Source: a virus
Taxonomy: Duplodnaviria; Heunggongvirae; Uroviricota; Caudoviricetes
DNA length: 24,336 bases
Virus record (IMG/VR): IMGVR_UViG_2740892113_000002
Strand: one strand, 5' to 3'
Part shown: positions 12,602 to 19,384 of the stretch, in pieces
Numbering within the stretch: the first letter of the stretch is position 1
Layout: every line of letters begins with the position of its first letter
Made by a program: the position numbers and the translations under genes
The notes under the pieces: model-generated
Told to the model about the DNA's origin: nothing
The model's input: the letters and a program-made list of their open reading frames with translations, nothing else
The model's database searches: none

Positions 12602-12928
12602 TCATAACACCGTCGGACAACGCAAATCGTAAATCAGCACGGAAACAGAAAACGGCAGCTCCCCCTGAAGCAGTTCTTCCCGCTCCGCAAGATCCGGATT
12701 CCGGTACAGCATCCCGGTCAGTCGCATGGCAGCCCCCTTCATCCGGGTTAATGCCTCGCCCGGGATCAGTTCACCGTCCTCACGGATCACTTTATCCCGG
12801 CTGCCCTGAATGTAGGCCAGCAGCACGGCGGTAGCCTGACGAACCTTGTCCATCAGCATGTCATCATCCGCGTCATGGTCGACACGCAGATGTGCCTTGA
12901 TCTCTTCCAGTGTCAGTAATGCCGTCAT
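12602..12928 (-). CDS. gp6-like head-tail connector protein
   Basis: 108 aa. MTALLTLEEIKAHLRVDHDADDDMLMDKVRQATAVLLAYIQG is the characteristic N-terminus of gp6-like connector proteins. Stop overlaps the next start. Confidence 0.7.
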   Translation of the reverse strand: MTALLTLEEIKAHLRVDHDADDDMLMDKVRQATAVLLAYIQGSRDKVIREDGELIPGEALTRMKGAAMRLTGMLYRNPDLAEREELLQGELPFSVSVLIYDLRCPTVL

Positions 12929-17722: not shown

Positions 17723-19384
17723 TTATATGAAAAAAACCGCATATTCTTTCTTTTTCGGTTCCGGGTTAAGGGACATCAGGGAGACCGCATTGAACAGCGC
17801 CATCAGCGGGTCAATTTTTCCCCGTCCACTGGCCTGTTTGGTGATAAGAATGGCGTTACCTTTAGGCTCCACCCGGGCATTGCCGACACACCAGGCCATC
17901 AGGGGCTGGTCACCATGCACCAGCACCCCTTCAGCCAGTTTGCGCTCGGTGGTTTTAATGGCCCCGCCCAGTTTCCAGCCCTGGCTTATCCCCACCACAA
18001 TTCCGTCGGGGATCCCGGCTTCCGCCAGTGAATCCAGAATCTGCCCCACCCCTGACGGGTCAATACCGATATGGTCCAGTAACTCAGCCTCATGAATGCG
18101 ACGCACATATTCCGCCACTTCCGCCGTGTCATCCCCGACACGCCGGACAATGGTCATATCTCCACAGGCAACAAGATCCTGAAACCGGGACGCCTCGCTC
18201 TTCCGTCGGACCACCGCGGTTTCATGCGCCCAGGCATGGCCCCAGCCCAGCCATTCGCGGGTCTCCCGGTCACGCCCAATCACATACATCCCCAGCAGAT
18301 CATCCAGCCCTCCGCCGTCAATCCCCACCGTCACCACATCAGCACGACGCAGGATATCGTCCAGGCTGATACAACGGCCCTGCTCTTCCCAGAAATCAGC
18401 CCCCGCCCAGCGGTCAGAGCGCAGGGCAAGACCAATTTCCACATTGGCGTGTTTTGACATGAACCCCCGGAATGTCTCTTCACCGGCTTCCCGGGCTTTA
18501 CGGTACTCCCGGTACAGAAAGGCCTCATCCACTGAATAGCCGAGATTCGGATTGACCATGGCGAGGTTTTCCATCAGCAGGTTAGTCCCGCTTTCCACCA
18601 TTTCAGGAGGGTGTTCAAATATCACCGGCAGAAAGTGCGGATCATGAATTTTGCCGTCGCGCACATCCCGGGCGTACTGCAGTTTCTGTCTGAACACCCC
18701 GGCGGGCGGTTCATTCGACTGGGTGGTCGTATACACCACAAACCCTTCCGGGCGGGAGGCAAGGCCGCCTATGGCTTCACGTAACATGTCCTCCGCCTTG
18801 CACTGCTTGCCAAACAGCCACAACTCATCAATCAGCGTACCCACGGACTTGATACCGGACACCGTATTCGGATCGGCTGCCACCACCTTCAGGGTGGTGT
18901 CCGTCACTCGGTGGGTGATGGTCCGGATATGGGTCTGTACCTGGCAGAGGTCATCCAGATCATCGTCACGTCGTACCATATCCCGGGCAGGGTTGAAGGC
19001 GTTGGCCGCCACCTCCACAGTCGGGGCCAGAATCGTGTAACCCGCCGCCTGCCGCCAGTTCAGTAACAGTGCAGTCATCATGATCCCCGCGGCCAGCGTG
19101 GACTTCGAGTTTTTCTTGGGGATAAGGATAAAAACTTCCTTGATATGGCGTACACCGGTCTGCGCATCGTAGGAGCCAAACAGGGCCGCCACCAGGTCAA
19201 ACACCCACGGTGCACAGGACTCCCCGAACGTAGGGCTACCAGGTGCATCCACAATCCGCAGTTGTTTAAAAATCGCCAGGGCATGTGCGGCCTCGTCCGG
19301 ATAAATCGGATCCGGAATAATCGACAGCCCCTTTTTCAGGCGCTCTGCCCAGTCCGGGCAGGCTGTGCTCCATACAGGTATCAT
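17723..19384 (-). CDS. Terminase large subunit
   Basis: 553 aa. Walker-A-like segment ILIPKKNSKSTLAAGIMMTALLL and overall character fit the large terminase family. ATGA overlap with the small subunit gene. Confidence 0.9.
   Translation of the reverse strand: MIPVWSTACPDWAERLKKGLSIIPDPIYPDEAAHALAIFKQLRIVDAPGSPTFGESCAPWVFDLVAALFGSYDAQTGVRHIKEVFILIPKKNSKSTLAAGIMMTALLLNWRQAAGYTILAPTVEVAANAFNPARDMVRRDDDLDDLCQVQTHIRTITHRVTDTTLKVVAADPNTVSGIKSVGTLIDELWLFGKQCKAEDMLREAIGGLASRPEGFVVYTTTQSNEPPAGVFRQKLQYARDVRDGKIHDPHFLPVIFEHPPEMVESGTNLLMENLAMVNPNLGYSVDEAFLYREYRKAREAGEETFRGFMSKHANVEIGLALRSDRWAGADFWEEQGRCISLDDILRRADVVTVGIDGGGLDDLLGMYVIGRDRETREWLGWGHAWAHETAVVRRKSEASRFQDLVACGDMTIVRRVGDDTAEVAEYVRRIHEAELLDHIGIDPSGVGQILDSLAEAGIPDGIVVGISQGWKLGGAIKTTERKLAEGVLVHGDQPLMAWCVGNARVEPKGNAILITKQASGRGKIDPLMALFNAVSLMSLNPEPKKKEYAVFFI

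Follow-up and report, generated by a model that had tools for sequence, protein, structure and literature searches.

From the gp6-like connector to TerL the interval very probably encodes head assembly within the late operon of a lambdoid E. coli prophage of the same type as Stx phage 2851 (Pankowvirus), with a permuted gene order that is fixed in an old proteobacterial sub-lineage. The DNA analysed, referred to as the window, comprises 24,336 nt of Caudoviricetes DNA (IMG/VR record IMGVR_UViG_2740892113_000002), of which positions 12,602-19,384 are shown. The minus strand carries all genes of the head interval, and the ORF list and profile scans give the order HNH, TerS, TerL, protease/capsid fusion, small ORF, portal and gp6-like connector (Table 1). 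Gene identities were assigned by Pfam and PHROG scans and additionally by NCBIfam profiles, and the RefSeq annotation of identical DNA in E. coli strain 4/4 gives the same gene assignments and order. An earlier note on this DNA had placed TerL, protease/capsid, portal and connector in this order between 12925 and 19384 and had described it as a departure from the canonical HK97 and lambda order. By Pfam, PHROG, NCBIfam and RefSeq both order and coordinates are exact, and the departure is real, the module order being TerL, protease-MCP, portal. The 73-aa ORF between capsid and portal was absent from the gene list of that note. As gene order is not a statistical feature, a test against chance is not applicable.

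Table 1. Features of the head, neck and proximal tail module in the window (positions of the whole stretch).
Feature	Coordinates	Strand	Evidence
Major tail protein, C-terminal Ig-like domain	10675..11391	-	phrog_158 E=1.7e-116; Ig_3, I-set, Phage_TTP_11
Tail terminator	11458..11802	-	PF11367 E=1.1e-7; phrog_347
HK97 gp10-like neck/tail-completion protein	11799..12245	-	PF04883 E=1.2e-9; phrog_5
Head closure protein (Hc1)	12242..12592	-	PF05521 E=1.9e-17; phrog_25
gp6-like head-tail adaptor (Ad1)	12602..12928	-	PF05135 E=1.5e-7; phrog_40 E=1.3e-30; TIGR01560
PEXT (phrog_1289), former separate gene, aa 455-861 of the 861-aa ORF	12925..14148	-	Homology to PAJU2 ORF007
162-nt (54-aa) tandem repeat in PEXT, 3.3 copies	13391..13923	-	Tandem Repeats Finder, 95% matches
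Portal proper, HK97 family, aa 1-454	14149..15510	-	PF04860; TIGR01537; PDB matches; free portals in relatives
Run of six G joining portal and PEXT frames	14160..14165	-	Allele comparison
Small ORF, 73 aa, basic C-terminus, overlaps portal start	15456..15677	-	phrog_829 E=3.7e-39; RefSeq WP_001063099
GC-rich hairpin, 9-bp stem, GUGC loop, 14 nt past capsid stop	15686..15707	-	Folding
Prohead protease, putative delta/scaffold-like region and HK97-fold MCP in one 645-aa ORF	15722..17659	-	Pfam, TIGR01554, phrog_617
In-frame internal ATG (Met193), AAGGA upstream	17081..17083	-	Position of MCP start in split relatives
Terminator-like hairpin and T-run between TerL and protease/capsid gene	17681..17698	-	Consensus match only
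TerL	17723..19384	-	PF03354 (TerL_ATPase) E=2e-11 and PF20441 (TerL_nuclease) E=1.5e-9; phrog_9 E=4.5e-145
Terminase small subunit (TerS)	19381..19944	-	PF03592 E=1.3e-8; phrog_641 E=7.6e-68
HNH endonuclease, adjoins terminase genes upstream of TerS	20235..20600	-	PF01844 E=2.7e-7; phrog_589 E=1.8e-44; RefSeq

The head module belongs to the HK97 family, with HNH, TerS, TerL, S78 protease, HK97-fold MCP, HK97-family portal, gp6-like adaptor, head closure and gp10-like proteins. HK97 itself (gp2 TerL, gp3 portal, gp4 protease, gp5 MCP, gp6 adaptor, gp74 HNH) encodes the same families, and both have in common TIGR01537, Peptidase_S78, TIGR01554, PF05135, PF04883, an HNH gene beside the terminase and the lack of a separate scaffold gene, none being found between TerL and Ad1 in the ORF list or in RefSeq. 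However, HK97 is ordered TerL, portal, protease, MCP, whereas the window is ordered TerL, protease-MCP, phrog_829, portal(-PEXT), Ad1, has protease and MCP fused and carries two extra genes, phrog_829 and the one here called PEXT. The HNH protein is a putative HK97-type accessory of cos packaging; for HNH proteins encoded beside the terminase a role in cos cleavage was reported (Kala et al., 2014, as cited in PMC12967558).

Within E. coli the module is widespread. Prophages in many E. coli chromosomes, as well as phage record ON470626, match the window DNA at 100% identity, and 1258 of 5426 complete E. coli genomes (about a quarter) match. Stx2c phage 2851 (Pankowvirus, NC_049943) is annotated with the same order and matches over 7351 nt at 98.1% identity, and phages 2851, YYZ-2008, WGPS6, 1717, JLK-2012 (Marienburgvirus) and vB_EcoS-783R2 show 95-100% DNA identity from TerS to Ad1. 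In the long-tailed Stx1a/Stx2 relatives gene order, protease/MCP fusion and small ORF are identical to those of the window, with essentially no difference; phage 1717, unlike the window, carries IS629 in the portal region. Phages of this type make viable virions, since phi330, a Pankowvirus whose closest relative is WGPS6, forms plaques and is a siphovirus with a head of 55 nm (PMC12502783); WGPS6 carries the head module at 98% identity. That paper's supplement contains no proteomics for the siphovirus portal (PMC12502783).

Relatives of the portal are encoded in 256 GTDB species loci, of which the best 80 were inspected together with three phages. In all 76 of these loci that hold the three genes, PAJU2, vB_FKKS2 and Mcat6 included, TerL precedes the MCP and the MCP precedes the portal, and these loci span Alpha-, Beta- and Gammaproteobacteria. 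The sampled clade was limited to portals at least 36% identical to the window portal, relatives of 30-36% being left out, and locus families were assigned by home-made iterated HMMs with a Pfam cross-check in two loci, one from Rhizobium and one from Sphingomonas, which gave the same order. Members of the portal clade are 36-100% identical to the window portal, whereas all other phage portals, those of phages with canonical order among them, are below 30%; in phiKO2, the one of these that was checked, the portal lies before the MCP as in the canonical order. The same permuted order is found in PAJU2 (with IME307), the Moraxella catarrhalis Mcat phages, Burkholderia vB_FKKS2/SBP39 and Ralstonia prophage-like phages, with ProMCP 37-48% and portal 36-45% identical to the window. 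The distinct head lineage suggested by the earlier note is thus borne out, as a portal and protease/MCP clade with invariant order, and the comparison with related prophages that it proposed gave the same order throughout. To judge from these sequences, the permuted order is that of an old, fixed HK97-family sub-lineage and not the product of a rearrangement in this genome. The term rearranged, if taken to mean a recent or local event, does not fit an order that is old, shared by three proteobacterial classes and present in about a quarter of complete E. coli genomes. The implied novelty does not hold either: the order is the normal one in a large, described phage group (Stx phages 2851, YYZ-2008, 1717, JLK-2012 and many Stx1a/Stx2c phages), which the earlier note had itself named as the finding that would speak against its reading. 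In a full-text literature search no paper turned up that comments on the gene order described here, on PEXT or on the joining of protease and capsid in this lineage. The Virfam paper on the classification of necks treats gene order in general terms only (PMC4362835).

The 645-aa protein combines protease and capsid signatures. Peptidase_S78 (PF04586) matches aa 48-152 with 34.7 bits (cut-off 21) and the match is divergent, as proheadase_HK97 (TIGR01543) reaches 46.5 and stays under its cut-off of 59; Phage_capsid (PF05065) matches aa 386-635 with 53 bits (cut-off 24.2), major_cap_HK97 (TIGR01554) matches aa 204-584 with 78 bits (cut-off 27.5) and phrog_617 spans the full protein (E=1e-261). 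The fusion, which had been taken together with the gene order as a sign of a rearranged or distinct head lineage, is present and is likewise a trait of the lineage, with protease and MCP fused in 52 loci and split in 24. PAJU2 encodes both a "prohead protease fused capsid protein" and a separate PEXT (ORF007), while the Burkholderia and Moraxella phages, unlike the window, have separate protease and MCP ORFs and lack a PEXT ORF. On the NCBIfam model of prohead protease/MCP fusions, NF045541, the window protein scores 54 bits against a cut-off of 525, so it represents a different fusion lineage. The internal Met193 is a possible MCP start, and aa 193-300 are conserved with the N-terminus of the free MCPs in split relatives. 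In the NF045541 fusions and in lambda C/Nu3, which are nested genes, a protease is likewise physically linked to a scaffold or capsid polypeptide; a possible in-frame internal start, in the window Met193, would give a shorter product.

The 861-aa ORF (12925-15510, minus strand) is matched by PF04860 over aa 54-382 (E=6e-81) and by portal_HK97 (TIGR01537) with 349 bits (cut-off 112), and its sequence matches in the PDB are the HK97 portal 8cez (E=4e-20) and the RcGTA portal. Profile searches, as the earlier note had suggested, agree that the protein is a portal. However, free-standing portals in relatives measure 436-480 aa, and the allele comparison indicates that the ORF consists of the portal and the neighbouring gene PEXT, joined in frame by a G5-to-G6 insertion. 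The window and phage 2851 carry the same G6 fusion, while JLK-2012-type alleles carry G5 with separate ORFs for portal (450 aa) and PEXT (407 aa), the portal stopping at an ATGA overlap with the PEXT start. Such an overlap of portal stop and PEXT start is found in nearly all loci. Among IMG/VR contigs 42 have G6 and 61 have G5, and in complete E. coli genomes G6 is the commonest allele class (672 records at at least 99% identity). Other Enterobacterales relatives have AGAGGA in place of the G-run, with the genes still separate and overlapping, and the relatives outside E. coli are all split yet lack the run. On this distribution the split state is ancestral. Almost throughout the lineage PEXT is coupled to the portal, and a portal fusion arose twice independently. 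Databases label PEXT "portal protein" solely on account of the E. coli fusion; its free homologues in other bacteria appear as "portal protein" or "portal protein-like" in some sources and as "hypothetical" in most.

It is improbable that the G6 fusion is a disabling frameshift in a decaying, non-productive head module. The fusion is in frame with all 407 PEXT codons open, all other head, neck and tail ORFs of the window are intact, and G6, besides being present in the 42 contigs and the commonest class in complete E. coli genomes, is found in the genome records of Stx phages 2851, YYZ-2008 and WGPS6. In favour of decay are the ancestral split state, the flanking of the strain 4/4 prophage by an IS element and a truncated lom, and work on T4 gp20-GFP, in which C-terminal portal fusions were reportedly placed inside the head and can impair function. 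An equally small chance is given to the G-run being a programmed switch, in which phase variation or slippage (of transcription or of the ribosome) would adjust how much free portal is made relative to portal-PEXT. Both alleles are common, and a -1 or +1 slip on the G6 message would yield a free portal ending within 10 codons; programmed frameshifting is nevertheless unlikely, as relatives outside E. coli do not conserve the run, the relatives with AGAGGA keep separate, overlapping genes, the run lacks a canonical in-frame slippery heptamer, and there is no sign of mixed populations. More doubtful still, and hardly credible, is the idea that the portal has a C-terminal extension domain of its own, like the P22 barrel. 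The single uninterrupted ORF in the window and in phage 2851, phrog_2271, which models the whole 859-aa protein, and a second, independent portal fusion of 614 aa in a Brevundimonas locus (L042) fit such a domain. Yet the C-terminal 407 aa form a separate ORF in about 73 related loci, PAJU2 and JLK-2012, the JLK-2012 junction differs by a single G, and the old start codon and N-terminus are kept (MTERELSIIRALGEEF compared with MNERELSLIRALGEEF in Enterobacter). Sequencing errors are an unlikely source of the split forms, given the 61 IMG/VR contigs with G5 and the relatives outside E. coli that are split without the run. What the earlier note had listed as an extension of the portal is thus a gene in its own right in relatives, joined to the portal here through a single additional G.

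The PEXT part of the window protein matches phrog_1289 with E=1.1e-190 and the separate PAJU2 gene ORF007 with E=1e-26 by BLASTP; in about 73 loci PEXT stands as an ORF of its own immediately behind the portal, and its original ATG (14146-14148) is kept in the window despite the G6 fusion. In the protein an N-terminal helix is followed by helical repeats and by a C-terminal beta region that holds a putative CBM5/12-like domain, and collagen-like GXY runs occur in 25 of 75 homologues. The alignments show a conserved C-terminal motif, PV.IYRGV..G..Y..GD.VTWGGS.W...KPG...W.LA.K.GRDG, that is present in the window. An AF2 model of the last 175 aa reached a pLDDT of 87, and Foldseek returned local matches of this model to chitin-binding domains and phage fibres, among them 2d49 (TMt 0.69, rmsd 1.3 A), a local match over 44 residues only with E=0.1; no match to the PDB was obtained at E<=0.001. 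The CBM5/12 profile PF02839 scores 19.1 bits in PEXT, under the Pfam threshold of 26.2. A PDB profile search with the PEXT alignment gave designed helical repeats and one CIS baseplate protein only, and an earlier AF2 model from an 11-sequence alignment had a pLDDT of 57.6 and an uninformative fold search. Two of the three large PEXT homology searches gave almost only E. coli portal fragments, which are poor material for a diverse alignment.

PEXT is a fibre-like protein and thus most likely a minor component of the virion that is bound to the portal; in relatives its translation is coupled to that of the portal gene. A more specific proposal is tentative and somewhat less likely to be right than wrong: PEXT may be an unrecognised, widely conserved HK97-like virion component, a trimeric fibre anchored on the portal, with a coiled coil at its N-terminus, repeats of helical or collagen-like type and a tip resembling CBM5/12, acting as a glycan-binding fibre at the neck or collar or as an internal portal-tethered structure. 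SPP1 gp7 and Mu gpF are minor head proteins with a presumed association with the portal, and like PEXT they are encoded immediately 3' of the portal gene. No sequence or fold similarity to PEXT was found for these two, whereas the repeats and CBM5/12-like beta domains of PEXT resemble phage fibres.

The terminase has a history of its own. TerL of the window is 50% identical to that of Moraxella Mcat6, whereas tblastn with the window TerL found no match in PAJU2 or the Burkholderia phage, whose TerL proteins are of a different type with about 18-19% identity in alignments. Across the loci the identity to the window TerL is bimodal, 39-84% in 42 loci and 15-24% in 24, while capsid and portal stay related throughout, which points to an exchange of TerL independent of the capsid-portal block. 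Spearman correlations of pairwise identities among TerL, protease, MCP, portal, Ad1 and Hc1 are all weak (0.08-0.39); because the sequences form a star-like set with identities around 50%, co-inheritance could not be shown by this comparison, and TerL bimodality alone is informative. The mosaicism of lambdoid prophages and this independent TerL history lend slight colour to a recent local rearrangement, a recombination of two prophages or an assembly artefact in this genome, which can be dismissed, since over 1200 complete E. coli genomes as well as 95 phage records share the identical DNA and order, and since the order is kept in 76 of 76 distant loci from three proteobacterial classes.

A hairpin after the MCP is kept across the lineage, with a median best energy of -22.1 kcal/mol compared with about -12 after six other genes, and a best hairpin of -15 kcal/mol or lower in 96% of cases after the MCP compared with 11-25% after the others. 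The window hairpin itself has a z-score of only -1.46 in a 61-nt context. It was considered as an intrinsic terminator and rejected, as it lacks a U-run and was not listed by the terminator scan. The conserved hairpin probably separates the abundant capsid message from that of the low-copy portal and neck genes, and it could act as an attenuator or 3' stabiliser. The terminator-like hairpin that precedes the protease/capsid gene is followed by a strong SD (AGGAGG) and then by the GTG start of this gene. The small ORF (phrog_829) was found in 15 Enterobacterales loci and has a homologue in Moraxella Mcat6 (E=2.4e-24). A programmed frameshift from the small ORF into the portal at the A6 run near 15480 was rejected, as there is no in-frame slippery heptamer and the small ORF of relatives stops at the portal start.

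By analogy with the established HK97 assembly pathway, Q-antiterminated late transcription would run through HNH, TerS, TerL, protease-MCP, small ORF and portal(-PEXT) into the neck and tail genes. The protease-delta-MCP polypeptide would co-assemble around the portal dodecamer with protease and delta region facing inward, MCP started at the internal Met193 may join in assembly, and the protease would then remove itself and the delta region. TerS and TerL would cut and package cos DNA together with HNH, and Ad1 and Hc1 would then seal the head for tail joining. The literature search found no experiment on the head module; maturation cleavage, internal starts, the role of the hairpin and the location of PEXT are predictions.

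The permuted order as such is already known, since hundreds of phage and prophage genomes in the databases, those of medically important Shiga-toxin phages included, carry it with correct annotation, and the window adds nothing new to it. Head-gene order is among the most conserved features of tailed phages, so that an exception which is stable helps annotation and bears on the question of how order is connected with assembly and expression. For annotation pipelines, a capsid gene before the portal gene is not an error in this lineage, and the E. coli "portal proteins" of about 860 aa are a portal with a fused neighbouring gene. Both PEXT and the hairpin behind the capsid gene are conserved and still uncharacterised, and phages such as 2851, phi330 and PAJU2 are tractable systems for them. 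If the reading of PEXT as a fibre is true, PEXT and the conserved post-capsid hairpin would mark the permuted lineage as a distinct programme of head assembly and not as a simple shuffle of genes.

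The genes of the window were identified by Pfam, PHROG and NCBIfam scans, and the ORFs of interest for head, neck and tail were all called on the minus strand. These scans confirmed to the base the order described in the earlier note, i.e., TerL followed by protease/capsid, portal and connector. Downstream of the major tail protein gene, lambda-like tail genes are encoded. At its C-terminus the major tail protein has an immunoglobulin-like domain (matches to Ig_3, I-set and the Hoc-like phrog_2973), as is likewise found in lambda gpV. The terminator-like hairpin behind TerL is followed by a strong Shine-Dalgarno sequence and a GTG start.

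Features of the head, neck and tail region in transcription order
Feature	Position	Strand	Matches and remarks
HNH endonuclease	20235-20600	-	PF01844
TerS	19381-19944	-	PF03592, phrog_641
TerL	17723-19384	-	PF03354, PF20441, phrog_9
Terminator-like hairpin with T-run	17681-17698	-	between TerL and protease/capsid gene
Protease/capsid protein, 645 aa	15722-17659	-	Peptidase_S78 aa 48-152; HK97-type capsid domain (PF05065 aa 386-635; TIGR01554, 78 bits)
Met193 codon	17081-17083	-	in frame; AAGGA upstream
Post-capsid hairpin	15686-15707	-	9-bp GC stem, GUGC loop; 14 nt after capsid stop codon
Small ORF, 73 aa	15456-15677	-	phrog_829
861-aa protein	12925-15510	-	N-terminal half HK97-family portal: PF04860 (E=6e-81); TIGR01537, 349 bits (cut-off 112)
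G-run	14160-14165	-	G6
Former start codon of the downstream gene	14146-14148	-	within the fused ORF
162-nt (54-aa) tandem repeat	13391-13923		3.3 copies
gp6-like adaptor (Ad1)	12602-12928	-	PF05135
Head closure protein (Hc1)	12242-12592	-	PF05521
gp10-like protein	11799-12245	-	PF04883
Tail terminator	11458-11802	-	PF11367
Major tail protein	10675-11391	-	phrog_158

Searches with the protease/capsid protein (tblastn) recovered homologues in Pseudomonas phage PAJU2 (48%, annotated as "prohead protease fused capsid protein"), in Burkholderia phages (39%), in Moraxella catarrhalis Mcat phages (37%) and in Ralstonia phages. All three annotations inspected (PAJU2, Burkholderia vB_FKKS2 and Moraxella Mcat6) show the order TerS, TerL, protease and major capsid protein (MCP), fused or separate, small ORF(s), portal and neck. 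An alignment of the portal core was further used as query against GTDB, with each species represented by a single genome; this yielded 256 confirmed loci, of which the best 80 (48-70% identity) were examined; these derive from Enterobacterales, Pseudomonas, Marinobacter, Burkholderiaceae and many Alphaproteobacteria (Rhizobium, Brucella, Sphingomonas, Devosia, Methylobacterium, Brevundimonas). ORFs were called and classified by iterated HMMs seeded with the window proteins. Among the loci examined, TerL, MCP and portal follow each other in this order in 76 of the 76 loci holding all three, and the canonical order was found in 0/76; separate Pfam scans of Rhizobium and Sphingomonas loci give a matching order. 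Within the phage collection the portals of this clade are 36-100% identical to that of the window, whereas all other portal matches, including Streptococcus, Bacillus Gamma, SfV, phi644-2 and phiKO2, remain below 30%. In contrast to the window, phiKO2 is arranged canonically, with the portal (2447-3568) ahead of the MCP (4718-5866). Among HK97-family heads, the module thus belongs to an old and discrete sub-lineage with the protease-capsid block ahead of the portal. The order, being fixed in this sub-lineage, is thus the norm in a large and already described phage group. The distinct head lineage proposed in the earlier note is therefore borne out by portal clade and gene order; its proposed rearrangement is not, as the order is a trait shared by PAJU2, vB_FKKS2, Mcat6 and the bacterial loci alike.

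The window sequence itself is already known, against the implied novelty. Its 7.35 kb from TerS to Ad1 recur at 100% identity in prophages of many E. coli chromosomes and in phage record ON470626. Stx2c phage 2851 (genus Pankowvirus) matches at 98.1%, YYZ-2008, WGPS6, 1717, JLK-2012 and dozens of Stx1a/Stx2c phages at 95-98%, and the RefSeq annotations of E. coli strain 4/4 and phage 2851 show the same gene order. The module is present in 1258 of 5426 complete E. coli genomes, with up to seven copies per genome of a 401-nt portal-region probe. Phage phi330, a Pankowvirus for which WGPS6 is the closest phage, is a siphovirus that forms plaques and has an icosahedral head of 55 nm (PMC12502783), so phages of this genus make working particles.

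Protease, MCP and portal are recognisably related throughout the set (pairwise identities from a minimum of 32-36% up to 100%). TerL identity to the window is bimodal, with 42 loci at 39-84%, 24 loci at 15-24% and none between; in tblastn the window TerL matched Moraxella Mcat6 (50%) and gave no match in PAJU2 or the Burkholderia phage, though capsid and portal genes were found there. TerL has therefore been swapped independently, with the capsid-portal block travelling together. Pairwise identities showed weak rank correlation in every gene pair and were uninformative in this respect. The protease/MCP fusion is common in the lineage and not universal (fused in 52 loci, separate adjacent genes in different frames in 24). 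The window protein scores far below the cut-off of NF045541, a different protease/MCP fusion family; as that family is already curated by NCBI, such fusions are of a known kind. Met193 coincides with the start of the free MCPs in split relatives, and a putative internal start there could plausibly provide a protease-free MCP beside the fusion.

The portal extension noted earlier proved to be a neighbouring gene, here termed PEXT, fused to the portal by a single G. Residues 455-861, which make up the C-terminal 407 aa, match PAJU2 ORF007 (BLASTP E=1e-26), a separate 334-aa gene immediately after the PAJU2 portal, and both match phrog_1289. In about 73 loci a PEXT homologue (167-812 aa) is a separate ORF after the portal, and the portal stop almost always overlaps the PEXT start (ATGA, TGATG or ATGnnTGA), which indicates translational coupling. 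In JLK-2012 portal and PEXT are separate ORFs (450 and 407 aa) with an ATGA overlap, and the junction reads G5 where the window and phage 2851 read G6; the old PEXT start codon and N-terminus are still present in the fused ORF. Both alleles are frequent in IMG/VR contigs (42 with G6, 61 with G5). Of the diverged E. coli alleles, the majority are shorter by 1 nt across the 401-nt probe, confirmed base by base for JLK-2012 only. Because other Enterobacterales read AGAGGA at the junction, without a G-run, the G-run and the resulting fusion are probably accidents of the E. coli lineage and not a conserved recoding signal. Portal and PEXT have been fused a second time, independently, in a Brevundimonas locus.

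Two alignments of PEXT show an N-terminal amphipathic helix, a variable middle and a conserved C-terminus (PV.IYRGV..G..Y..GD.VTWGGS.W...KPG...W.LA.K.GRDG). The middle is built either of PxPxDGKSvTxeDVxPmI...AV repeats of ~27 aa or of GXY runs resembling collagen, with at least six consecutive triplets in 25 of 75 homologues and 60 in one. In the window, PEXT contains the 162-nt tandem repeat; for several E. coli relatives the alignment breaks into two pieces or the match is longer and scores higher, suggesting variation in its copy number. AlphaFold2, run on a 79-sequence alignment, modelled the last 175 aa confidently (mean pLDDT 87.1). Foldseek against the PDB gave no match at E<=0.001 and local similarity only, to the CBM5/12 chitin-binding domain 2d49 (TMt 0.69, rmsd 1.3 Å, 44 residues) and to phage tail fibres or receptor-binding proteins (9rkv, 8fqc); among predicted viral structures, phage proteins annotated as "collagen triple helix repeat", "ChiC_BD" or "CBM family 5/12" matched with E down to 1e-9, and a sequence search of solved structures returned no relative. 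Database members are mostly named "hypothetical protein"; a few bear the name "portal protein" or "portal protein-like", which was evidently taken over from the fused E. coli protein. PF28083 is assigned in a precomputed Pfam column to many E. coli portal-PEXT proteins and to one distant PEXT homologue, and was absent from the Pfam scan of the window portal. We read PEXT as a predicted trimeric, fibre-like minor virion protein, bound to the portal on account of the gene coupling and the two natural fusions (Rosetta-stone logic). Its location may be external, as a neck fibre, or internal, at the crown of the portal; from T4 gp20 fusions, a C-terminal portal fusion is expected inside the head.

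Between capsid and portal, the small basic phrog_829 ORF (51-62 aa in relatives) overlaps the portal start by 55 nt in the window. Homologues occur in Enterobacterales and Moraxella, and the Burkholderia-phage ORF at this position aligns weakly; most other loci hold an unrelated 50-120-aa ORF, and 1.3-4-kb insertions are found in loci L027, L030, L032, L046, L065 and L081. On a 3-kb contig labelled as MAG Chitinophaga sp. (NZ_DATCVJ010000643.1), small ORF, portal, PEXT and Ad1 are of the Enterobacterales type (60% identity); its place in a Bacteroidota MAG looks like binning contamination.

Hairpins behind stop codons were compared in 79 loci, taking the best simple hairpin in the first 110 nt. 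After the MCP stop the median is -22.1 kcal/mol, with 96% at -15 or below; for the stops of TerL, portal, PEXT, Ad1, Hc1 and gp10 the medians are about -12 and just 11-25% reach -15. A strong GC-rich hairpin behind the capsid gene is thus conserved lineage-wide. Many of these hairpins have UUCG-type tetraloops. Some are followed by a T-run, e.g., in PAJU2 and Mcat6; that of the window has none and was not listed by the terminator scan. The hairpin likely sets the highly abundant capsid mRNA apart from the low-copy genes for portal and neck, probably by attenuation or by stabilisation of the mRNA 3' end, and one plausible reason for the permuted order is that it puts the portal behind such an element. 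The lineage-wide order, the portal-coupled PEXT, its fusion by one nucleotide in E. coli and the hairpin behind the capsid gene, of which no discussion was found in the literature searched, are what this re-analysis contributes, as leads of modest interest and no surprises.
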